IMG/VR virus record: IMGVR_UViG_3300049440_000308
Location: 62,309 to 126,308 of that record
Source of the DNA: a virus
Reading direction: 5' to 3' (one strand)
Length of the DNA: 64,000 bases
In this document: one piece after another, positions 15,149 through 64,000 of the stretch
Layout: each line of letters starts with the position of its first letter
How positions within the stretch are numbered: position 1 is the stretch's first letter
Notes under the pieces: generated by a model
Seen by the model: the letters and a program-made list of their open reading frames with translations, nothing else
The model's database searches: none
What the model was told of the DNA's origin: nothing
Program-made: the position numbers and the translations under genes

Positions 15149-15355
15149 ATGAGCTGGCACCCGACGCTGAGCAGCATCGAGCGCAGGAGCGACCTGGTGC
15201 AGGACCGGCCCCGGCCGCTCACGGACACGGCCTGGCGCGAGGCTGCGCTGAAGGTCATTGACACAGGGGGCTGCTGGTGCGGTGAGCAGTGGCCTCACGA
15301 CTGGCCCGGCAAGGACGACGGGAAACCGCACCCGAGGCGGGAGGTGCGGTCATGA
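15149..15355 (+). CDS. small Cys/His protein
   Basis: GAGG SD; CWCGEQWPHDW. Confidence 0.6.
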   Translation: MSWHPTLSSIERRSDLVQDRPRPLTDTAWREAALKVIDTGGCWCGEQWPHDWPGKDDGKPHPRREVRS

Positions 15356-15555
15356 CAGGGCCCTGCTGGCAGGCCGGCTATGTCTACCTGCTGCCGGAGC
15401 GCACGCCGGTCGCGCGCACCGTGACAGTCAGCGACGACGTGATGGTGGACGTGGACGCCGAGGGCCGACCGATAGGCGTGGAGATGCTTGACGGCGGGGA
15501 CTGGACGGGCGCCCTGGCGACGCTCGCCATGCGCGGAAGGCTGAGGATCACGTGA
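15352..15555 (+). CDS. DUF2283-like protein
   Basis: YVYL...VMVDVDAEGRPIGVEMLD. Confidence 0.65.
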   Translation: MTGPCWQAGYVYLLPERTPVARTVTVSDDVMVDVDAEGRPIGVEMLDGGDWTGALATLAMRGRLRIT

Positions 15556-15788
15556 GCGCTCAGATCATCGCCGCATTGCGCAGGCGGGCAGACCTGCTGG
15601 AAGACGACGCGAAGGTCTTCCGCGCCGACCATGAGGTCGCCCTCGGCTACGCGCCCACCGTCGGGGACGCGGCGGTGGTGAATCCTGGCCTGCTGCGGTT
15701 CCTCGCCTCCCAGTTCCTCGCCCTGGCTGACGAGGCCGAGGGACGCGGGGCACTGGAGCCCGACAAGCGCGCCGGGGACGGGCAGTGA
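15552..15788 (+). CDS. hypothetical protein
   Basis: GTGA overlaps. Confidence 0.6.
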   Translation: MSAQIIAALRRRADLLEDDAKVFRADHEVALGYAPTVGDAAVVNPGLLRFLASQFLALADEAEGRGALEPDKRAGDGQ

Positions 15789-25393: not shown

Positions 25394-25637
25394 CGTCTTC
25401 CCCTGCCTCGAACTCGTCGGCGAACCGCTGCGCGAAGTCCCGGAACCCCTTCTTCGTCGCCGGCCGCTTGAAGCCGAACCGCTCCGGGTTGCGGACCTCG
25501 GCGGGGAAGCCGTGCCGGAACGCCAGCGGGTTAGCCAGTCCCTCGCCCCACTGGACTTCCATGCGGGCACCGTCTCCGCCTGTCCACGAGTAGCGGTAGG
25601 TGGCGAGTGCGGACTCGTTGGCTAGCTTGACGGTCAT
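25386..25637 (-). CDS. hypothetical protein
   Basis: GGAAG upstream; natural composition. Confidence 0.6.
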   Translation of the reverse strand: MTVKLANESALATYRYSWTGGDGARMEVQWGEGLANPLAFRHGFPAEVRNPERFGFKRPATKKGFRDFAQRFADEFEAGEDDD

Positions 25638-25730
25638 CTCGCCACTTCCCTCCGGGGGAACCTCTCCCCGTCGCCGCCAGTGTATACACCTACTGATATA
25701 GATACAACGGCCGGTGTACGCTTTGCAGTT

Positions 25731-25949
25731 ATGAGTGAATCGGAGATCGAGCGCGAGCTAACCGAGGCGCAGGCCGACGTGATCAGGGTCCGCGAGGCCA
25801 GCAGCCGGCGCCGCAGGGCCGTCATGGCCGCACTCGCGGCAGATCCCCCCTGGACTAAGTACAAGATCGCGGCCGTGCTCGGCGTCGGAGGCCCGACCGT
25901 AGACGCGATCGTCAAGGCTGCGCAGCGCGAGGCGGGCACCGCGGGCTAA
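25731..25949 (+). CDS. small HTH DNA-binding protein
   Basis: WTKYKIAAVLGVGGPTVDAIV; divergent from 25637 across an AT-rich gap. Confidence 0.65.
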   Translation: MSESEIERELTEAQADVIRVREASSRRRRAVMAALAADPPWTKYKIAAVLGVGGPTVDAIVKAAQREAGTAG

Positions 25950-26102
25950 GTTACCCCCGGGGCCGTCCCTTCGGCCTGCACGGGCGCGAACCGGGGTCAT
26001 GGCCATGGCCTTGCAGTCCGTGCCGCCGGTTCCGGAGGTCCTAGCCGGCTCGCCAGCGCTAGCTCACCGACCCGCTTGCGCGCCCCGGGGGTACCGTCAA
26101 GC

Positions 26103-26327
26103 CTACCCGCGGCGGTTCGCGGGCGCGCTCGCCTCAAGCAGCGGCTGCCATCCGAGCCAGTCGACACCCTGGTAGCAGTAGGCGCACGGGGCGCACATCC
26201 CGCCGATGTCCGTAGCCTTCTCGGCCTTCTGGTGGCAGGCACCGGACACGGCGTGAGACTCCGGGCACGAGCAGGGGCGGCCGAGCAGGATGTCAAGGGC
26301 CGCGATCGCCTGCGCGGGATCGGTCAT
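26103..26327 (-). CDS. small Cys-rich protein
   Basis: CSC, CHQ and CAPCAYC motifs. Confidence 0.5.
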   Translation of the reverse strand: MTDPAQAIAALDILLGRPCSCPESHAVSGACHQKAEKATDIGGMCAPCAYCYQGVDWLGWQPLLEASAPANRRG

Positions 26328-26331
26328 GCCG

Positions 26332-26976
26332 TTACACCCGCCGCAGGGTGAACCCGGCGTCGGCGAGGCCGCCGATCAGGTCATCGCGGGTGAACGTGAC
26401 CGCGTTGCCGTCGCGGGTGCCGACCTCGACCCGGAACGCCGCCGGGTCGACGGGGATCATGATGAACTCGCAGTTCGCCCACCGGCAGACGTCGGCCGCC
26501 TTCGGCCCGTACTGGACGTACCAGGCGTGGTCGGTGGTCCGCTCGCAGGCTGCCGGGTCGAACGGGCCGTCGCCGGGATGGCTGTAAGGGCCGCGGAGGA
26601 ACTCCTCGTAGGCGGCGCGCTCCTGCTCGATCTCGGCCGCCCATTCCTCGTCGGTCTGCCACCACTCGGTCCGGTGGGCGACCAGGATGCCCATCGCCTT
26701 GATGCGGTCGTCCTCGTCGCGGCGGTAGAAGGTGCTGGTCTCGATCACGAGGTCGCCGGGCTGCGGGTCTTTCATCCGCTCCCACATCCGCTTGACGACG
26801 GGTGCCTGGTTGCCGACGAGCACCGCGTCGCGGAGACACTTCGCCGTGCCGCCCATCATCATCCTGCGGGGAATGGCCGCTTCTTCGAGGGACAGCAGGT
26901 CGTCGTCGCGGTCGGTGCCGGTGATGCCCTCGCGTGGCTGGGGGTAGGTTTGCGCGCCGTTGTTCATGCCGTCCAT
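26332..26976 (-). CDS. hypothetical protein
   Basis: GC3-rich, 214 codons; GATAAT immediately upstream. Confidence 0.65.
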   Translation of the reverse strand: MDGMNNGAQTYPQPREGITGTDRDDDLLSLEEAAIPRRMMMGGTAKCLRDAVLVGNQAPVVKRMWERMKDPQPGDLVIETSTFYRRDEDDRIKAMGILVAHRTEWWQTDEEWAAEIEQERAAYEEFLRGPYSHPGDGPFDPAACERTTDHAWYVQYGPKAADVCRWANCEFIMIPVDPAAFRVEVGTRDGNAVTFTRDDLIGGLADAGFTLRRV

Positions 26977-54807: not shown

Positions 54808-55401
54808 ATGTCGGGATACACGGGCACGATGTTCGAGGAACTGTACTCGCTCCCGGTCGCGGTCACGAAGAACACCTACACGACGATCGCCCCGGTCTCC
54901 GCCGCCGCCGCCACGTCAGTACCGCGCTGCGTCATCCCGGCGGGGTACTTCAGCGCGGCCGGCAAGTCGATTAGCTACCGGGCCAGGGGCACGCTCCAGT
55001 CCGCGGCGGGCACGGCGACGTTCTCTTTCACCGGGGGGCTCGACTCAACGGCGGCGACGCTCGGCAAGACGCTGTTCGCGACGGCGAACCTGACCCCGGC
55101 CACCGGCACGGCCGTGTTCGACATCGAGGGCGACATCGTTGCCCAGGCAGTCGGGCAGGCCGGGACGACGCTTCAGTCGAACGGCTCAGTGCGGGTGGCG
55201 GGCACCACCGCGAACGCGTGGCTCACGTCGCTGGCCGCCACGGGCGGCGCGGCGGCAGGCGCCCAGGTGCTGTTCTCGAACAGCGTCACCGCGCTGGACA
55301 ACGAGGTGAGCCAGTACCTTGAGCTGTTCGGCACGTGGTCCGCGTCGTCGGCGACCAACTCGACTGTCCTTCAGGTGTTCAAGGTGTACGGCGAGAACTA
55401 G
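54808..55401 (+). CDS. beta-rich hypothetical structural protein
   Basis: GC3-rich ORF in the operon. Confidence 0.65.
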   Translation: MSGYTGTMFEELYSLPVAVTKNTYTTIAPVSAAAATSVPRCVIPAGYFSAAGKSISYRARGTLQSAAGTATFSFTGGLDSTAATLGKTLFATANLTPATGTAVFDIEGDIVAQAVGQAGTTLQSNGSVRVAGTTANAWLTSLAATGGAAAGAQVLFSNSVTALDNEVSQYLELFGTWSASSATNSTVLQVFKVYGEN

Positions 55402-55439
55402 CCGGAGCGGCCAGGGGCCAAGGTAAGGGAGGTGCCGCC

Positions 55440-58400
55440 GTGGCCGTGACCGTTGACGCCGTAGGCCCGTCTTCCTCCGGCCAGGCATCCGCCAGCGCCA
55501 CCGCCCTTACCTGGACGCACACCGCCGGGGCCGGCGGCACCGCCGTGCTGGCGTGGGTCGGCTGCGTCGCCTCTGACGGGGTTGCCCTTTCCTCCATCAC
55601 GGTGACCGTCACGTACGGCGGCACGCCGATGACGCTGCTGGCGCCCGGCGTCCCGGCCGGCGGCCCGGCGGCCACCACCGCCGGCGGCATCTTCGTCTTC
55701 GGCCTCACCGGGGCGCCGGCCGGGGCCAGCACGGTCTCGGTAACCGTCAGCGGGGACAGCGGCAACGCCGGCGGCAACGAGGGCGGCTCGGTCTCCTATA
55801 ACGGCGCGGGCGGCTTCGGGACGCCGGGCACCGCGGGAAGCAACGGCGCGGCCGTCGCGTCCGGGACGGTCAGCGCCGCCGGCACCGCCTCCGGCAACCT
55901 GGTCGCCGCCGGCGTCGTCTGCGGGTCAGGCCCCGGGGTCACGTTCACCGCCCCGGCCGCCGGCGACGTCTCCTGCGCGAACAACAGCCTCTCCGGCGCC
56001 GGGTACCTGGGCATCTCGCACACGGCCTCGTCGTCCGGCACGGTCAGCACCGCCTGGACGCAGACCTCCGACTACTACGGCGCCGTGGCCGTCGAGGTCG
56101 TCGCGGCGGGCGCCGCCCCCGCGGTCGCGCCGCAGCCGCAGCCGCAGCCCGGAGGGCGCGCTTACCGCCGCCGCTGGCGGCGTGCCCAGCAGCGGGTGCT
56201 CACTACCGCGCCGGCTGCGGCTCCCGCCCAGTTCACCGAGGCGGGGGCCGCCGCGGACTCCCTGGGCGTCTCCTCCGCGGTGACACTCACGGAATCCGGC
56301 GCCGGCGCCGACCGGGGGCCGCTGGGGCCTCCCTATATTGCCGGGCTAGGGGGCGGCACCGGGACCGCCGGGTACTTCACGGACCAGTACGGGAACCCGC
56401 GCATCCTGTGGCTCGAGATGGCATGGGGCCTGCCGGGCAACGCGGGCCGGTGGAACAGCGGCAACTGGCAGTCCGACATGGACGCCTACTTCGCCGCCCG
56501 GGCAAGCCAGGGCTACACGGGCTGGTGGGGCGTCCCGTGGATCAACACCATCATCGACCCGGGCGCCGTCCACGCGGACGGCCGCACCTGGGACGGCATC
56601 TACCCGCTGACAGTCAACGGCACCCCCGGGAGCATCGCGACCGGCAGCGAGACGCTAGGGCTCAACGGCAGCTTCTGGGCGCGGACCGACTACATGGTCT
56701 CGTCGGCGCTCCGCAACGGGATCACGGTCTTCCTGAACCTGGGCATGGGCTACGACTTCTCGCAGTCCGGGTTCATCTGGCAGCACCTGAGTACTACGCA
56801 GGCGCAGGCGTTCGGCGCGCTGGTCGCCGCCCGGTACCCGCAGGGCACCTACCCGAACCTGCAGTGGGTGTTCGGCGACGACACGCTGGCCGGCGCGTAC
56901 GATACCTACTTCTCCGCGATGCTGACCGGGGTCCGGGGCACGGGGGACACGCGCAACGCGGTTGCCGTGGAGCAGCTGCTGGAGACCAACTGCCACATCG
57001 AGTTCGACACCGGGGCCGTGTACGTGCCCGGCGGGTTCGGCGTCACGAGCGCCCAGTGGAACCACGTCTACACCTACTGCCCTCCGTACCTGGCCGTTGA
57101 GGACTCCTACACCGAGTCGGGGACCACGCTGATCCCGGTCGTGTGGGGTGACGGCGCCTGGCACGGGGACACTGACAACGGCACGCCGGAGTACACCATC
57201 CGCCGGCAGACCTGGTGGGCGCTGGCCTCGGGGGCGCGCGGCGTCAACCAGACGGCCGGGCCCTCGAATGCCGCCACCGCCACGATCTGGACCTGGCAGT
57301 CCGGCGCGGCAGCGGGACTGGCATCCGACCCCGCCGGGCCGTGGTGCACGACCACCGGGCCGGCGGTCAGCGCGTACTTCACCAGCCTGCCGGGCTGGCA
57401 CAAGCTCGTCCCGGACACGGGAAGCGCGCTGGTGACCAGCGGCCGGGGTTCGAAGTCCACTAGTGCCGCGCCCGGTTTCACCCCGGCCAACTCGTACGGC
57501 GACACCGACAACTACGTTGCCGCCAGCCGGGTCAGCGACGGGTCCCTGGCGGTCATCTACTGCGGGCAGCACTTCAGCATCACCATCGACCAGGCCAAGA
57601 TGGCAGCCGGGTACACGGCCACCTGGGTTGACCCGTCGTCACTGGCCGTGACCGCGGCCACGGCCGGCTCCTCCTACAACTCGACTCCGCAGGGTAACAA
57701 CAGCGCGGGCAACCCGGACTGGGTACTGGTACTCCAGGCATCTGTCACGGCTGCGTCACTGCCTGAAGCCGGCTCCGGTACCGACGCCCTGGCGGTCTCG
57801 CAGCCGGCCGGCCTCAGTGAGCCCGGCACGGCAAGTGACGCCCTCGCACTGGCGGGGCCGGCTCCGCTGGCAGAGACGGGTGCCGCGGCCGCCGCCCTGG
57901 CGGTCGTGCAGCCGGCGCCCTTCACTGAGGCGGGCGCCGGCGCGGATGCCCCCGGGATCATGCCGGGCCTTGCTGACACCGGGCAGGCCGCCGACACGCT
58001 CGCTGTCACGCTGGCCTCACTGACCGGGCTGACGGACGCCGGGGCCGGCACGGACAGCCTGGCGGTCGCACAGCCGGCCCCGCTGACGGAAACAGGCGCG
58101 GGGTCTGATGCCCTGGCGCTGGCGCAGCCCGCAGGGCTCCCCGAGGCGGGCGCCGGGGCGGACGCGCTCGCCATCGCGGAACCCGCCAGCCTCACGGAGA
58201 GCGGCACCGGCACTGACCTTCTCGGGACCGTGCCGGGGCTGGCCGAGTCCGCCGGCGGCGCTGACGCGCTCGCGGTCTCGCAGCCGGCCCCGCTGAGCGA
58301 AGCGGGCACCGGGACCGACGCGATCGCGGTCTCGCAGCCGGCCGCGTTCCCGGAGTCCGGCACGGGCGACGGCCTGCCGGCGGTGACGCAGCCCACGGGG

Positions 58401-59507
58401 CTGGCCGGCAGCGGCACCGGGTCGGAGGCACTGTCGGTTACGCTCGTCACGCTCGCCGGCCTGACTGAGGGCGGCTCGGGAGCCGATGCCCTTGCGGCCG
58501 TCCCGGTCGCGCCCCTGAGTGAGTCCGGTACCGGGGCGGACGCCCTCGGGGCCATGCCAGGGCTCACCGGGACGGGCGCCGGCGCTGACGCGCTCGCGCT
58601 AGCCCAGCCGGCCGCGCTCACGGAGGGGGGCACGGGCGACGGCCTGCTCACGCTGGCGCAGTTCACGGGCCTCGCCGAACCTGGCGCGGTCACGGACACG
58701 CTGGGGATATCGCAGGCCGCCGCCGTCGCCCTGGCCGAGTCCGGGGCGGGGGGTCCTGAGCAGCTTGGCGTGATGCCGGGGCTCGCCGACACGGGCACGG
58801 GCTCCGGCTCGCTGGCGCTGGCGCAGCCCGCGGGGCTCACGGAGGCCGGCGCCGGGGATGAAACCCTGGCGCTAGCCCAGTCGGCCAGCCTGGCGGAGGC
58901 CGGCGCCGGGGCGGACTCCCTGGGTATCCCCAGCCTCAGCGTGATCAGCCTCGGCGAGGCCGGCGCAGGCAGTGACACGCTCGCCGTCACCGCCGGCACG
59001 GTTCCGCTCACGGACGCCGGGGCCGGCACAGACAGCCTGGCGGTGATGCAGCCCGGCACGGGCAGCACCGGCACCGTCACCTGGACGGCTCATCCTGCCC
59101 CGCCCCGCTGGCGGGCCTCGCCTGCCCCGCCCCGCTGGAGGATCATCATGGCACTGTTCGAGCCGATCGCCGCGATCAGCCTGGAAGAGGTCAACGTCAC
59201 CTGGCTGTCCCGGCTCGCCGGGACGACGGTTGACCCGACGGGCGTGAGCGAGGGGTCCACGCTGCTGCCGGTTCAGATGGCCTTCCCGGTATCATCCGGG
59301 AACCCTGCGCTTCCCGCGGAGCCTGTTACGTGGTTCGCGGCGTCATGGCTGCTCGGCGGGACCAGCATCGGCTACATAGCGCAGGCGCTAGTCGGCCCTG
59401 GCGGGACAGTGACGCTGACCGCCGGCATGACCTATGACTGCTGGTCAAAGATAAGCGGGGCGCCTGAGAGTCCAGCGAAATTCGCCGGCTCGATCGAGGT
59501 GTACTAG
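55440..59507 (+). CDS. large multidomain tail/fibre protein: beta domain, DUF4038/apiosidase-like TIM barrel, collagen-binding-like domain, LxExGxGxD repeats, C-terminal domain
   Basis: AGGGAGG SD; YFTDQYGNP..W, YFAARASQGY, WVFGDD, WGDGAW, IRRQTWWALASGA, WVDP and PDWVLVL. Confidence 0.75.
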   Translation: MAVTVDAVGPSSSGQASASATALTWTHTAGAGGTAVLAWVGCVASDGVALSSITVTVTYGGTPMTLLAPGVPAGGPAATTAGGIFVFGLTGAPAGASTVSVTVSGDSGNAGGNEGGSVSYNGAGGFGTPGTAGSNGAAVASGTVSAAGTASGNLVAAGVVCGSGPGVTFTAPAAGDVSCANNSLSGAGYLGISHTASSSGTVSTAWTQTSDYYGAVAVEVVAAGAAPAVAPQPQPQPGGRAYRRRWRRAQQRVLTTAPAAAPAQFTEAGAAADSLGVSSAVTLTESGAGADRGPLGPPYIAGLGGGTGTAGYFTDQYGNPRILWLEMAWGLPGNAGRWNSGNWQSDMDAYFAARASQGYTGWWGVPWINTIIDPGAVHADGRTWDGIYPLTVNGTPGSIATGSETLGLNGSFWARTDYMVSSALRNGITVFLNLGMGYDFSQSGFIWQHLSTTQAQAFGALVAARYPQGTYPNLQWVFGDDTLAGAYDTYFSAMLTGVRGTGDTRNAVAVEQLLETNCHIEFDTGAVYVPGGFGVTSAQWNHVYTYCPPYLAVEDSYTESGTTLIPVVWGDGAWHGDTDNGTPEYTIRRQTWWALASGARGVNQTAGPSNAATATIWTWQSGAAAGLASDPAGPWCTTTGPAVSAYFTSLPGWHKLVPDTGSALVTSGRGSKSTSAAPGFTPANSYGDTDNYVAASRVSDGSLAVIYCGQHFSITIDQAKMAAGYTATWVDPSSLAVTAATAGSSYNSTPQGNNSAGNPDWVLVLQASVTAASLPEAGSGTDALAVSQPAGLSEPGTASDALALAGPAPLAETGAAAAALAVVQPAPFTEAGAGADAPGIMPGLADTGQAADTLAVTLASLTGLTDAGAGTDSLAVAQPAPLTETGAGSDALALAQPAGLPEAGAGADALAIAEPASLTESGTGTDLLGTVPGLAESAGGADALAVSQPAPLSEAGTGTDAIAVSQPAAFPESGTGDGLPAVTQPTGLAGSGTGSEALSVTLVTLAGLTEGGSGADALAAVPVAPLSESGTGADALGAMPGLTGTGAGADALALAQPAALTEGGTGDGLLTLAQFTGLAEPGAVTDTLGISQAAAVALAESGAGGPEQLGVMPGLADTGTGSGSLALAQPAGLTEAGAGDETLALAQSASLAEAGAGADSLGIPSLSVISLGEAGAGSDTLAVTAGTVPLTDAGAGTDSLAVMQPGTGSTGTVTWTAHPAPPRWRASPAPPRWRIIMALFEPIAAISLEEVNVTWLSRLAGTTVDPTGVSEGSTLLPVQMAFPVSSGNPALPAEPVTWFAASWLLGGTSIGYIAQALVGPGGTVTLTAGMTYDCWSKISGAPESPAKFAGSIEVY
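57760..59060 (+). repeat. imperfect coding tandem repeats, units of about 17-21 aa (L-T/A-E-x-G-x-G-x-D-x-L)
   Basis: Repeats visible in the translation. Confidence 0.85.
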
Positions 59508-59511
59508 ACAG

Positions 59512-59546
59512 CGGCACCCCCCGGCGGGAAGTACCGGGGGGTGCCG
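59512..59546. terminator. bidirectional terminator hairpin between late and leftward genes
   Basis: 13-bp stem CGGCACCCCCCGG/CCGGGGGGTGCCG. Confidence 0.7.
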
Positions 59547-59576
59547 TAATGCTGTGCGCCTGGCCTAGCTCAAACG

Positions 59577-60608
59577 CTACGCGGTCACGAAGAACACGTA
59601 GCCGAAGTGAGATCCCGGCCACGGCGTGGTGCTGTGGGTGGAGCAGTCAGCCGGCCCGCTCACCGGCTGGTAGTACACGGTGTAGCCGTGGTGCTGCTCC
59701 AGCCCGCCGTACACCGCCACGTTCAGCCCGACCACGCCCGGCACCCAGCCCTGGTGGCCGTTGATCGCGCCGGGGCCGACGATGGTGAAGTGGTCGCACG
59801 AGGCCACGTTGCTCTGGATGAACGACACGTTCTCACGAGACGGGTTGATCCCCTCGGTGGCGCGCCCGCCGCTCAGCTTCGGCACTCCCTCGAAGAACGG
59901 CCCGACGACCGCGATGATCCCCTCGGTGGCCACGGAGCCGGCCGGGTCGGCGGCGCGAACGACGAACAGCGGGTACTTGCCGTTGACGGCGGTGCCGACC
60001 GACAGCGTCTGCGCGGTCCCGTCGAACACCACCCCGGCGGGCAGGTTGGACGCCGTCTCCGGCACGCTGCCCGGCACGGTCGAGAAGGTAACCGCCCCGT
60101 TGGCGTTGGTCGGCGCGTTCAGGGTGACGGTGTCCGTCGTGATGGTCACGCTGTCATGCGCGGTGTCGTCGCCAGGGGTGACAACCACGGTCGCAACGCC
60201 CCGCGCGAGACCGGGCGAAAGCTCCGACGCGTCCACCTTGAACGTGTCCGTGTGCCCGGCCGGGAAGACGCCCGGCTGGAGCGTAACCTGCCCGACGCCG
60301 ATCGTCGGGTCGGTGATCCCGTCAACGGGCAGGCCTGAATCACTCCAGTGGATGCCGGGGAAGGCGTTCAGGGTGCTGGTCGCGGCGAACTGGATGACCG
60401 ACCCGACGGGCACCTGGGTGGCAGGGCTGTTGACCGGGATGGCGAACGAGCCGAACATCGCGGTGATGCTGCTGATGCTGTCGGAGTACGCCTCGGCGGC
60501 GGTGACGCCGTTGGGGGTCGCGGCGTGCGCGGTCCCTCCCGCGGCAAGGGCCGCTCCCGCAATCAGCGCGGGTACCGCCAGGGCGGCGGCAAGCCTGCGG
60601 ATCTTCAT
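59577..60608 (-). CDS. secreted protein with putative Ig-like domains
   Basis: Sec signal MKIRRLAAALAVPALIAGAALAAGGTAHA; WSDSGLP and SNLPAGV repeats; GAGG SD. Confidence 0.75.
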   Translation of the reverse strand: MKIRRLAAALAVPALIAGAALAAGGTAHAATPNGVTAAEAYSDSISSITAMFGSFAIPVNSPATQVPVGSVIQFAATSTLNAFPGIHWSDSGLPVDGITDPTIGVGQVTLQPGVFPAGHTDTFKVDASELSPGLARGVATVVVTPGDDTAHDSVTITTDTVTLNAPTNANGAVTFSTVPGSVPETASNLPAGVVFDGTAQTLSVGTAVNGKYPLFVVRAADPAGSVATEGIIAVVGPFFEGVPKLSGGRATEGINPSRENVSFIQSNVASCDHFTIVGPGAINGHQGWVPGVVGLNVAVYGGLEQHHGYTVYYQPVSGPADCSTHSTTPWPGSHFGYVFFVTA

Positions 60609-60700
60609 ATGACCTCATTCTCTCTTAACGTGCCCCCTCGCGACTGTCGCGGGGGAAGCACCTGATTCTGCACCGCACCAGAGGGGAATGCGGCGGTATA

Positions 60701-60748
60701 GGGGCAACCTGGGGGCAACCTGTTACCTGCACTGCCCCAGGTTGCCCC
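60701..60748. promoter_or_regulatory. GGGGCAACCT direct repeats (11-bp period) plus inverted copy
   Basis: 60701-60710, 60712-60721 and inverted 60739-60748. Confidence 0.55.
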
Positions 60749-60773
60749 GGTTTACCGGGAAAAGACCCGGGTG

Positions 60774-60974
60774 CTACTCCGGCTGCACCGGGATGCCCGC
60801 GAGCAGCGCCCGGACTTCGGTTTCCCGGTAGCGGCGGTGGTTGCCGAGGGTGCGGATCGACGTGAGCTTCCCCGCCTTCGCCCACCGGGTGACGGTCTTC
60901 GGGTCGACGCGGAACATCGTGGCGACCTCCGCCGGGGTCAGCAGCGGCTCGGCCTCCGGGTGCCTTGTGCTCAT
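60774..60974 (-). CDS. bldC: BldC-family MerR-like HTH regulator
   Basis: EPLLTPAEVATMFRVDPKTVTRWAKAGKLTSIRTLG.HRRYRE.EVRALLAGIP matches Streptomyces BldC as I recall it. Confidence 0.9.
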   Translation of the reverse strand: MSTRHPEAEPLLTPAEVATMFRVDPKTVTRWAKAGKLTSIRTLGNHRRYRETEVRALLAGIPVQPE

Positions 60975-61084
60975 CTCTCGGTATTCCTCTCCCTTTAACG
61001 CGATATGGTTTCAGTCGTCGCAATACGGGGTGATCTTCCCTGTCCTGTCCCCGGCCGGAGTGCGATCCGGCCGGGAACGGGGAA

Positions 61085-61732
61085 TCACGGGGTATCCGGG
61101 CCGACCGGCTCGGCGTCCCGGAACTGCTCGATGACCTCGGCAAGTTCGCGGGCGTCAGCGAACGCGAGCCCGGCGCGCATCGCCCGCGTCATGTCCGGGT
61201 ACGCCTTCAGGTGCCGCCGGAGCCAGTGCTCGCGGGGGCTCACGTCCTCAATGTCGCCGCCGGTCACCAGCAGGCTCATCCCGTCGCCCTGCCGCATCAC
61301 CCGGGAGAACACCGGGTGCGCCCGGTAGCAGGTGAAGGTTGCCGCCACCTTCCCGCCCCCCGCCAGGCGCGCGTCATTGGCCTCACGGAGCAGGCCCTCG
61401 TCCATCACCATCAGCGCCCGCTCCCGCATCCCCGCGACCCGCCTGCGGTCCGGCGTGAACAGCACGCCCGCGTCCCGGTGCAGCCACGTGGCCGCGCCGG
61501 AGCCCGCCCTCTCATCGACCAGCCGGGCAAGCTCAGCGCGCAGCGCCTTCTCCCCGGACGCCGACCAGCGGACCCGCGAGCGGATCGCGGTCACGCCGAC
61601 CATGGCGGCGATGAGCCCGCAGCAAGCCGCCGGGAGGACATCGCCGACGACGGCCGCCCCCGCTGCCGTGAGAGCGGCCCATGCCGCCAGCACGTACCAG
61701 ATCCCGTAAGGGAACAGCCAGTTCCTCATCAT
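61085..61732 (-). CDS. membrane protein
   Basis: Two N-terminal TM helices; GGAG SD. Confidence 0.7.
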   Translation of the reverse strand: MMRNWLFPYGIWYVLAAWAALTAAGAAVVGDVLPAACCGLIAAMVGVTAIRSRVRWSASGEKALRAELARLVDERAGSGAATWLHRDAGVLFTPDRRRVAGMRERALMVMDEGLLREANDARLAGGGKVAATFTCYRAHPVFSRVMRQGDGMSLLVTGGDIEDVSPREHWLRRHLKAYPDMTRAMRAGLAFADARELAEVIEQFRDAEPVGPDTP

Positions 61733-61772
61733 CCCGTCCTCACTCCCTGTTCCTTTTCATCTTGTCGCCGGC

Positions 61773-62244
61773 TCAGATCCGGATCACCTTCACGCCGTCC
61801 GGCGACGGGTCGCCCAGCCCGGCGGTGACCTGGTCCATCATCGCTACCTCGGCGGGGCGAACCTCCCCGCGGGCGACCCGGGCGATCGCCTCCTGCCAGC
61901 GGGCGTCCGCGTCAACCGGGTCAACGGCAATTGCGGCGAGGGCCTCCCGCATCTCCGCCATGGGCGGGGCGGCAAACCAGAAGCTGCAGTAGGTGGCATC
62001 GAAGCTGTCGTCGGCGTCCCGCAGGTACAGCGGGTGCGCCTGCAGCGCCTCGTTGCAGGCGGCGAAGGCCTCCCGGTTCGGGCCGCCCTGCCGCGTGTAA
62101 AGGTGGATCTCCGGGCCGTCCTCGTCATTCATCGTGCACCGCGTCGCGAAACCGGCTTATCACCGGGTTGCCGAGCACGGCCAGCAGGACCGCGCCCCGC
62201 ACGTGCTGGCGGCCGTCCGCTACCGCTACCTCGTACATGGACAT
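61773..62244 (-). CDS. conserved phage hypothetical protein, apparently split (62125-62244 and 61773-62132)
   Basis: MSMY...LLAVLG...RFRDA then IHLYTRQGG.NRE...HPLYLRD.DDSFDATY resemble one protein family as I recall it. Confidence 0.5.
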
Positions 62245-62429
62245 CAGGCGTTCCCCTCTCGCAGCGCCTTTACCTCTTCCTGCCGGTACTTCCGGTGCCT
62301 GCCCGAACCGGGGACCGGGGTGATCTTCCCTGCTTTAGCCCAGCGGGTGACCGTCTTGACGTCCACGCCGAACTCCGCGGCGACCTGCTCCTCAGTCAGC
62401 AGCGGCGCCTCCGGCGGTGATGCGGTCAT
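62244..62429 (-). CDS. BldC/excisionase-like HTH protein (diverged paralog)
   Basis: PLLTEEQVAAEFGVDVKTVTRWAKAGKI...RHRKYRQEEV; GGAGG SD. Confidence 0.8.
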   Translation of the reverse strand: MTASPPEAPLLTEEQVAAEFGVDVKTVTRWAKAGKITPVPGSGRHRKYRQEEVKALREGNA

Positions 62430-62537
62430 GCTGTTCCTCCTCGTGCTAGCAGCGGTCTGCGGGGGGCGCGGCCCGGGGGCACCGGGCCACGGGACCGTAG
62501 GCGTGGGGGGCATCTCAGGCCTCCTGCCTGTACGCGG

Positions 62538-63365
62538 TCACGCCGAGGCCTCCGGTACCGTGATCCCCTGCTGCGCGCAGGCGTCCATGCAGCGCAGGCA
62601 GCCCCGGACGTACGCGGCGCTGGCCCTGTGGTTCCAGAAGCCCGCGTGGCCCACCCCGGCACCAGGGCAGAACGGGTCCTCGGTGCACTCCGGGCCGTCG
62701 AAGTGCACGATCAGGCGCCCCGGGCAGCAGAGCCGCGGGTGCCTGCCCGGGTCCGCCGCCACCCACCTCTTCTCGTACCTGATCGCCGCGGACAGGCAGT
62801 AGGGCTTCCCGGACCGCCGGTGGAAGATGACGGGCGGGCCGCCGGGGAGCAGCAGGTTCTCGCCCTCGAAGGCGACCGACTTCTGCCTGCTCGTCACCGG
62901 CTCCCCGCATGACCAGCAGCAGCCCGGCATGATCGCGGCGAGCCGTTCCATCTCCGCCGACTGCCTGCGGACCTCGTGCGTGATGTCGAGTTCCCGGCAA
63001 GGCCACGGCTCCCCGCACTCGGTGCAGACCGGGTAGTGCGGGTGCAGGACATAGGCCCGCGCCCGCAGCCCGGCGTACGGCCTGACCTCCAGGTGCTCCC
63101 GCCCGCCGCCCCTGGCCGGCTCCGCGATCAGGGCCAGCGGACGGAACCGCCACTCCTCCCCGGTGACGCCCTTGCGCCTGAACGGCTCGAAGTGCTCCCG
63201 GTCATCCTCGCCCCAGTCGATGACCGGGACCGGGCGGCTCTCGATGACCCGCCAGACCTCCCGGCCGAGCGCCAGCAGGTCACCGGGCCCCACGTCGCGC
63301 CAGTCGCGCCGCTCCCCGCCTTCCGGCTCCCACGTGCCGCCGTAACTGCCCCAGTACAGGCTCAT
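62538..63365 (-). CDS. Cys-rich hypothetical protein
   Basis: CTECGEPWPC, CCWSC and CLRC. Confidence 0.65.
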   Translation of the reverse strand: MSLYWGSYGGTWEPEGGERRDWRDVGPGDLLALGREVWRVIESRPVPVIDWGEDDREHFEPFRRKGVTGEEWRFRPLALIAEPARGGGREHLEVRPYAGLRARAYVLHPHYPVCTECGEPWPCRELDITHEVRRQSAEMERLAAIMPGCCWSCGEPVTSRQKSVAFEGENLLLPGGPPVIFHRRSGKPYCLSAAIRYEKRWVAADPGRHPRLCCPGRLIVHFDGPECTEDPFCPGAGVGHAGFWNHRASAAYVRGCLRCMDACAQQGITVPEASA

Positions 63366-63601
63366 GCCCGGCTCCCCCCGAGTGCCCTGAACACGGCGGC
63401 CACGGTACCCCGCAGTACCATCCCCGGGCCTCTCCTGGCGGGAAACTCATCATCCGCCCAGGCCTGGATCTCCTCTGTTATCGCCTCCGGGGCCCGCCCT
63501 TCCTCCTGCCTTGCCGCTATGACCGTGAGCAGTTCCAGGGCATCAGCGGGGTCCCCTGCCCTGGCGAGGGGGACACAGGGGAAGGGGACGGTCCGGCTCA
63601 C
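63362..63601 (-). CDS. hypothetical protein
   Basis: GTGA/ATGA overlaps. Confidence 0.5.
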   Translation of the reverse strand: MSRTVPFPCVPLARAGDPADALELLTVIAARQEEGRAPEAITEEIQAWADDEFPARRGPGMVLRGTVAAVFRALGGSRA

Positions 63602-63930
63602 GCGGCGGTCCGCTTTCCGCCGGCCTTGCCCCGCTGCTTCGGCGGGGTCCCCTGCGAGCGGGGCGCCGCGGTAGTGCCCCTCGGCCTGCCCGGCCTGTTC
63701 AGGAGGCGGGCGATCTCCGCGAGGTTCGCCGGGGAGAACACCTTCGACCGGCCCACCTGCGTACAGGGGAACTCGCCGCTGCGGGCCCGCTTCAGCAGCC
63801 AGTAGCCGGTCGTCCGCCCGGAGGGGTCAAGGATCAGCGCGGCCTCGTCGGCCGGGTAAAGGATCGGGGCGCCCGCCGCGGCGAGTTCTTCCGGTGAGCG
63901 CCGTTCCGGTGACGGGCGTTCCATCAGCAT
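63598..63930 (-). CDS. HTH (excisionase-like) DNA-binding protein
   Basis: LYPADEAALIL...WLLKRARSGEFPCTQVGRSKVFS; GGAAGG SD. Confidence 0.7.
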   Translation of the reverse strand: MLMERPSPERRSPEELAAAGAPILYPADEAALILDPSGRTTGYWLLKRARSGEFPCTQVGRSKVFSPANLAEIARLLNRPGRPRGTTAAPRSQGTPPKQRGKAGGKRTAA

Positions 63931-64000
63931 TCCTTCCCTGCCTGCTCGAGCCGTGCCAGCAGGTCCGCGTACCGGGCGGCCCGGTCGCCGTGCGGCTTCC

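Follow-up and report, generated by a model that had tools for sequence, protein, structure and literature searches.

BldC of Streptomyces (SCO4091; PDB 6AMA and 6AMK; family model NF033787) is a single winged HTH protein of 67–68 residues, monomeric when not bound to DNA, and one of few known "brakes" on actinomycete development. It keeps growth vegetative and represses, among other genes, whiI, whiD, sigF and smeA-sffA, and its own gene is monocistronic (PMC6428758). The head-to-tail interface of the protein is formed by F21, V23 and W31 against L11', I40', T42', L43' and G44', together with a contact between R22 and E16'; residues A15, D24, T27, T29, W31 and K33 contact phosphates, while R30, K36 and H46, with the wing residues R47 and R48, provide base and shape readout (Schumacher et al. 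2018, PMC5859096). H46 is inserted into the minor groove, the substitution G44E abolishes DNA binding, and the structure as a whole is Xis-like (PMC5859096).

Two other groups of described proteins are relevant here. According to the abstract of the survey by Sharma et al. 2021 (PMC8612146), actinobacteriophages encode host regulators of the WhiB and Lsr2 types, that is, small global or developmental regulators of actinobacteria that phages have acquired and kept. They are presumed either to reprogram the host or to take part in regulatory circuits of the phage, and neither the title nor the abstract of that survey names BldC as one of them. HTH_17 excisionases and MerR-like regulators, such as the Xis proteins of lambda and Pukovnik and the D29 protein gp36 (PMC12266134), resemble the phage BldC described below in fold, small size and the position of their genes in the early or lysogeny region; they bind direct repeats cooperatively and act on phage DNA.

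Here we describe a bldC gene carried by a phage. The analysed stretch of 64,000 nucleotides (the window) comprises bases 62309–126308 of a 131,159-bp IMG/VR virus record, and positions below refer to the window unless the record or another contig is named. The encoded protein has 66 residues, is 92–95% identical to BldC with all published contact and interface residues unchanged, and like its Streptomyces counterpart is apparently encoded by a monocistronic gene. It differs from the latter in having no host synteny and unrelated flanking DNA, in the substitutions G45N and T5H and a C-terminal tail ending in ..VQPE, in a more relaxed selection regime, and in that its role is a predicted one. 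Belonging to the MerR-like winged HTH proteins, it represents another family than the phage WhiB and Lsr2 proteins. Phage copies of WhiB and Lsr2 are not known to be nearly as close to their host proteins as the phage BldC copy is. From the HTH_17 excisionases and regulators, to which it is about 40–60% identical or less, the phage protein differs in sequence; their cooperative binding to direct repeats is predicted for it as well.

A BldC protein with a substituted wing turn

The bldC open reading frame (60774–60974, minus strand) consists of 66 codons with an ATG start and an upstream GGGAGAGG ribosome-binding site. Its GC3 of 0.95 is typical of real genes in the surrounding 70% GC sequence, so the minus-strand frame is the real one and the overlapping plus-strand ORF is a shadow. 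The product matches S. coelicolor BldC (6AMA) with an E-value of 1.1e-33 (phmmer) and 92% identity, residues 9–62 being the same except for G45N and A52T, and scores 102.6 bits against the NCBIfam model NF033787 (HTH_BldC; cut-off 77). Pfam HTH_17/MerR covers residues 11–59, and we found no further domain, neither a MerR coiled coil nor an effector domain. The 66-aa protein with a near-exact BldC core that had been predicted from the DNA letters is thereby confirmed, and the wing sequence given for it, TLGNHRRYRETE, is exact. Matches to TIGR01764 "excise" (34 bits; cut-off 28.8) and to phrog_66 "excisionase and transcriptional regulator" (1.9e-10) are of the fold level and are common to BldC itself. 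The PADLOC model mad1 (mads_1) also matches (E-value 1.9e-13), probably through generic HTH_17 resemblance; small BldC-like winged HTH proteins are also counted among the parts of a candidate defence system.

Over residues 1–64 the phage protein is 94–95% identical to BldC of Streptosporangiales (Nocardiopsis, Nonomuraea, Microbispora, Streptosporangium and others). We compared it with 80 chromosomal BldC genes from species-representative genomes; in its core, G45N is the one residue that sets it apart from every one of them. The pair GG occupies residues 44–45 in all 80 of these host genes and, among 80 BldC-like genes from IMG/VR contigs, in 76, whereas the phage protein has G44-N45 and hence does not keep the invariant Gly-Gly wing turn of the cellular proteins. 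Each of the four phage DNAs examined has AAC as codon 45 where the examined hosts have GGN, so the substitution needs two nucleotide changes. Outside the core, the phage protein differs from its nearest hosts by T5H and by its C-terminus, ..VQPE against ..QQRSE. Threonine at position 52 ("RETE") was observed in 94 of the 120 best database matches, in all Streptosporangiaceae and Nocardiopsis sequences recovered and in most of the nearest-host Streptosporangiales BldC genes; as T52 is the usual state of most BldC proteins outside Streptomyces, A52T is lineage background and not a phage change. Of the two core differences from S. coelicolor BldC, only G45N is specific to the phage.

In the alignment with 6AMA, the interface residues L11, E16, F21, R22, V23, W31, I40, T42, L43 and G44 are all identical in the phage protein, and so are the DNA-contact residues A15, D24, T27, T29, R30, K33, K36, H46, R47 and R48. 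N45 itself sits in the wing turn, between the interface residue G44 and the minor-groove residue H46. Gly-Asn is a favoured two-residue beta-turn pair, and the wing can therefore be expected to be kept, perhaps in a stiffened form. G45N probably tunes the rigidity of the wing or the cooperativity of binding and does not abolish function; given the invariance of G45 in hosts, N45 might also change or even invert the activity.

One database protein (P0001, 79 aa) is a BldC with a 12-residue internal duplication of the recognition helix, in which VDPKTVTRWAKA occurs twice; the duplication may be an assembly artefact.

Predicted action on the host BldC regulon

Since all residues that read DNA and that stack neighbouring subunits are kept, the phage protein should bind the operators of host BldC and co-assemble with it. 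The host family has its own BldC in 396 of the 401 genomes searched, and thus an infected cell or a lysogen would contain the two proteins together. We consider it fairly probable that the phage gene is a captured BldC xenolog, kept under selection and controlled by the phage, whose product keeps the host in vegetative growth by way of the host's BldC regulon. A bare bldC ORF would have been taken from a Streptosporangiales-type host by a phage from which a small clade of large temperate actinophages descends, and the gene would now be carried as a hairpin-insulated single-gene cassette with the phage's own regulatory DNA, where the early/lysogeny arm ends and beside a gene for a secreted protein. 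Its product would bind the host operators, which are direct repeats of AATTNNNN(C), and would assemble head-to-tail with host BldC, adding "brake" activity on the schedule of the phage. As a result, whiI, whiD, sigF and smeA-sffA would be repressed and the mycelium would be held in a vegetative, phage-permissive state. The DNA targets, the co-assembly, the timing of expression and the effect on development are predicted here from sequence, and it is the conservation of residues that suggests a mimic or dominant modifier of development, as had originally been proposed.

Streptomyces becomes transiently resistant to phages as it develops, and at an early stage of infection its developmental genes are repressed (PMC10117723). 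The function of BldC is known from Streptomyces only, and the host lineage here is likely Streptosporangiales. A search of the whole record for tandem AATTNNNNC sites gave no strict and six loose matches against nine expected; that the phage genome shows no enrichment of BldC sites weakly favours host targets.

The substitution in the wing could also mean the opposite, namely that N45 BldC enters the host BldC polymer and then poisons or caps the head-to-tail filament, or that it competes for sites and fails to regulate, which would lower BldC function and lead to premature development or a rewired regulon. The phage clade has N45 throughout, by a change of two nucleotides, in place of the G45 of 80 of 80 hosts; the position adjoins the residue at which G44E abolishes DNA binding, and the C-terminal tail is unlike that of all hosts. 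Such an antagonist nevertheless seems unlikely to us, because the mapped interface and DNA-contact residues are all intact and the wing should still form with a favoured turn pair. A 94% identical copy on another viral contig (L012, see below) keeps G45, which suggests an ancestral phage function without need for N45. In addition, premature sporulation would cut the phage-permissive biomass (PMC10117723).

The phage cassette and its neighbourhood

The bldC gene has the tail-fibre genes on one side and the cro/repressor/integrase switch on the other. Upstream of it on the plus strand are genes for the large terminase, the portal, the major head protein, the tape measure and tail proteins; the last gene of this rightward virion operon encodes a 1390-aa tail-fibre-like glycosidase (55335–59507, plus strand; Pfam Apiosidase, 2.3e-10), which converges on the bldC cassette and has partial 66–72% matches to large converging genes in two metagenomic phage contigs, L010 and L011. 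The bldC gene itself belongs to a minus-strand block that extends from a Cro-like HTH gene down to the gene of a 343-aa secreted protein. The Cro-like gene, which is the first of the leftward operon and matches PHROG families of transcriptional regulators, runs off the end of the window (63924–64000; record 126232–126495, minus strand). Facing it on the plus strand (record 126558–128752) are a divergent gene for a repressor-like HTH protein and then that of a 560-aa tyrosine integrase (phrog_1, 3.5e-22; Phage_int_SAM_3).

Several minus-strand ORFs are located between the Cro-like gene and bldC. The first is a 110-aa ORF of the early leftward operon (63598–63930), which was taken from the ORF list, had no match in family searches and by eye looks like an HTH protein or excisionase. 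It is followed by a 275-aa phage protein (62538–63365; phrog_26381, PHROG E-value 2e-29; 77% identical to an L011 gene) and by a second HTH_17 winged HTH protein, 89 aa as the longest ORF (62244–62513; Pfam HTH_17, 1.6e-10). A 119-aa protein of the same leftward operon (61773–62132) is 77% identical to the product of a 155-aa gene in L010, and the 215-aa upstream neighbour of BldC (61085–61732), for which family searches gave no match, is conserved, a 212-aa gene with 68% identity occupying the corresponding position in L010.

Directly downstream of bldC is the gene of the 343-aa protein (59577–60608, minus strand), which has a signal peptide and a candidate Ig-like fold (an Atlas Ig-domain match of 0.88 that serves as a lead only); searches of Pfam, PHROG and PADLOC gave zero matches for it. 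Its partners, likewise directly downstream of BldC, are 85–92% identical in L010 and L011, and there is a 339-aa gene in a third contig, L184. The cassette of BldC-N45 and a secreted protein of about 340 aa is thus found in all three metagenomic phage contigs, in the order small early genes, BldC-N45, secreted protein and converging fibre genes. A PADLOC scan of the bldC neighbours identified no defence system.

Both intergenic regions around bldC are structured and conserved. The upstream one (60975–61084, 110 nt, minus strand) is 81% conserved among three phages and folds with −46.2 kcal/mol (z −3.25); a strong hairpin lies at about 61047–61081, directly after the 215-aa gene, and between it and the ribosome-binding site are a conserved CCCGTATTGC element and then a stretch richer in A and T. 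The downstream one (60609–60773, 165 nt, minus strand) contains four hairpins, is 85% conserved among the three phages and folds with −78.6 kcal/mol (z −3.93). Within it, between bldC and the secreted-protein gene, a hairpin-flanked block of 29 nt, GGTGCGGTGCAGAATCAGGTGCTTCCCCC (60651–60679, minus strand), is invariant among the three phages and could be a promoter or an operator or belong to a small RNA. The bldC flanks gave nothing meaningful when scanned against Rfam, and a scan of 59400–64000 for consensus promoters found none and a single terminator-like site, within the 3' end of the 343-aa gene. With flanks of this kind, phage bldC looks like an insulated single-gene cassette.

The position of bldC in an operon that starts at the cro/repressor switch beside the integrase invites a further reading, in which the protein is an architectural protein of the phage itself, an Xis/RDF or an early/late regulator acting on phage DNA, and its likeness to BldC reflects shared fold ancestry. 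The matches to TIGR01764 and phrog_66 fit this reading, as do the Xis-like structure of BldC (PMC5859096) and the case of D29 gp36, a phage regulator with the same fold (PMC12266134). We regard it as quite improbable, since the protein is 94–95% identical to host BldC, against about 40–60% for generic phage HTH_17 proteins. The same comparison disposes of the concern, raised with the original prediction, that the likeness might be no higher than to generic Xis-like HTH proteins, as the best matches among GenBank phages remain below 60% apart from one at 73%. Excisionases are generally expected to match their cognate integrase, and the phage bldC gene does not track it: the integrase and repressor of L010 have no BLASTP match (1e-5) to our record, but the BldC copies are 91% identical. 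This absence of co-variation, with BldC kept despite unrelated integrases, counts against a role as excisionase. A separate and variable HTH_17 gene is available as RDF, and the tandem sites mentioned above show no enrichment in the phage genome.

That separate gene is the one at 62244–62513. Its 89-aa product is 57–58% identical to phage BldC and reaches 63.5 bits with NF033787, below the cut-off of 77; HTH_17 genes near the switch of related phages give 50–66% matches, against 91% for the BldC copies. By these comparisons the 89-aa protein is a better candidate than the BldC copy for the phage excisionase (RDF) or regulator. In all, the phage has three BldC/Xis-like winged HTH domains besides BldC itself and so uses the fold for purposes of its own, which counts against a host-directed reading of the BldC copy.

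Two observations concern tandem arrangements of this fold. Outside the window (record 15190–15591, minus strand, in L005), a 133-aa protein, P0121, has two tandem BldC-like winged HTH domains that are 57–63% identical to phage BldC, with an NF033787 score of 143 bits over two stretches; its sequence suggests that it is in effect a covalent head-to-tail dimer. L076, on another viral contig, likewise has two matches in one ORF.

More elaborate than action on the host regulon, and in our opinion improbable, is a scheme in which N45 BldC is one component of a two-part phage circuit for setting as well as reading the developmental clock of the host: it would co-assemble with host BldC so that the developmental state is held or shifted, virion production would be tied to a developmentally controlled bldA-type tRNA, and G45N would be an adaptive change of cooperativity or site choice relative to host BldC.

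Several genes of other types were noted elsewhere in the record. The early arm contains a TnpB / IS605 OrfB-type gene (L006:5437–6861, minus strand; record 25437–26861) with OrfB_IS605 and Cas12f1-like TNB domains. Two further minus-strand genes (L006:10858–13002 and L006:16454–18475) encode a 714-aa protein with LAGLIDADG and intein-splicing signatures and a 673-aa protein in which an HNH endonuclease is fused to a ResIII/DEAD helicase, respectively. A CCA-adding-enzyme-like gene (L005:4252–5676, minus strand) with a PolyA_pol head and an HD domain is 80% conserved in L010.

The record is linear and has no terminal repeats, and its right end (L009:11140–11159) is a run of about 15 G, probably an assembly break, which would account for an undetected terminal repeat. 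In the independent 116.5-kb metagenome contig L010, homologues of the left and right ends of the record are contiguous, with the left-end CCA-adding enzyme-like and HTH genes beside the right-end 326-aa gene that neighbours the integrase; hence the record represents a complete phage genome, linearized at an arbitrary position. The right end of the record did not align with the integrase-distal gap of L010. Scans inside each end region separately revealed no convincing end repeats, attP was not located, and ARAGORN detected no tRNA genes in the window, L005 and L009.

The surroundings of host bldC genes are different. In tblastx comparisons, the 4-kb upstream flank of a host bldC matches 75–79 of 79 other host loci, whereas the 4-kb flanks in the window gave zero matches to the host bldC loci and the flanks of L010, L011 and 80 IMG/VR loci gave at most a few weak ones. 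At the nucleotide level, no similarity of the phage bldC flanks to host bldC flanks was found, including the upstream and promoter DNA. From the dissimilar flanks it follows that the captured part was the ORF only, and from the absence of the host neighbourhood that the gene is a phage xenolog and not a host orthologue. That the gene is instead the bldC of a host chromosome, on flanking DNA that a prophage call took in by mistake, a possibility already considered with the original prediction, or an assembly chimera, is effectively refuted: in spite of a linear record that lacks terminal repeats and ends in poly-G about 8 kb from the gene, phage genes lie on both sides of bldC with the integrase distal, the cassette recurs with the same neighbours in three independent contigs, the upstream flank shared by host loci is missing, and copies matching N45 or residues 65–66 are absent from the genomes searched.

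Origin, distribution and significance

In the maximum-likelihood tree, the BldC of the window and four metagenomic 66-aa proteins (P0002, P0003, P0004 and P0082) form a clade characterized by N45 with support 98/86. Within the Streptosporangiales sequences this clade falls, with moderate support, among the BldC proteins of Nocardiopsidaceae; the alignment has 68 columns only, and the deeper placement is weak. A search of 5.8 billion proteins with a profile of the clade added two members, P0122 and P0125, followed by a score gap to host BldC, and the 132-kb IMG/VR contig L025 is a further carrier of N45. The gene is located inside a bona fide phage genome and its product is nested in the cellular BldC family, as in other cases of phage-borne host regulators. 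Together with the virus record, the phage flanks and the recurring cassette, this bears out the idea of a captured host regulator.

By synonymous divergence the nearest host is Microbispora (dS 0.52), Nocardiopsis being at 1.5. Within Streptosporangiales, the tree points to Nocardiopsidaceae and dS to the lineage of Microbispora as candidate donors, and the capture was not recent. Judging from the sequences, the donor and the host lineage are likely Streptosporangiales; Streptomyces, with which the protein had been compared in the original prediction, is not favoured as the source, since the nearest copies by identity, tree and dS all belong to Streptosporangiales. The dN/dS ratios are 0.15–0.22 among the phage copies, 0.04–0.15 between phage and host copies and 0.01–0.035 among hosts. 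Phage bldC is under purifying selection, which is 5–10 times more relaxed than that on host copies.

Among 50,697 GenBank phages the best BldC match reaches 73% identity, and none of the remaining 73 matching records attains 60%; a megablast search of these phages with 24 kb of the window gave no match. On IMG/VR contigs, at least 118 carry BldC-like genes, and identities form a continuum from 94% down to 58%, so that some members clearly serve phage-internal roles, a point against the host-directed reading. One 94% copy, from a second phage lineage, is encoded at L012:10001–10201 (plus strand) of a 58-kb IMG/VR contig. It keeps G45, has a C-terminus ending in ..LARP and is part of a phage early region, where a cro-like gene precedes it and a gene for a TROVE/Ro-like RNA-binding protein (phrog_850) is close by. 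A TROVE gene is also present near the BldC copy in L010.

A second BldC-like gene, 68–70% identical to the query, was observed in all four Streptosporangiales genomes examined for it (G001–G004; for example, G001:C1:507175–507342). It looks like a conserved cellular paralogue, whose product could interact with the phage protein.

A full-text literature search found no report of a phage-encoded BldC. As far as this search shows, a phage copy of BldC has not been described previously, while the borrowing of other host regulators (WhiB, Lsr2) by phages is already known. Given the IMG/VR contigs with BldC-like genes and the 94% copy in L012, capture of BldC may be recurrent and ecologically common in soil, in contrast to the cultured phages in GenBank, none of which exceeds 73% identity. 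The carrier described here, a large temperate phage from soil that infects filamentous actinobacteria of high GC content, can probably alter the developmental timing of its host. G45N offers a natural variant for probing how the wing controls cooperative DNA binding by BldC. If the proposed role is true, the gene would provide direct genomic evidence that phages manipulate the developmental barrier against phages that is known in Streptomyces (PMC10117723).
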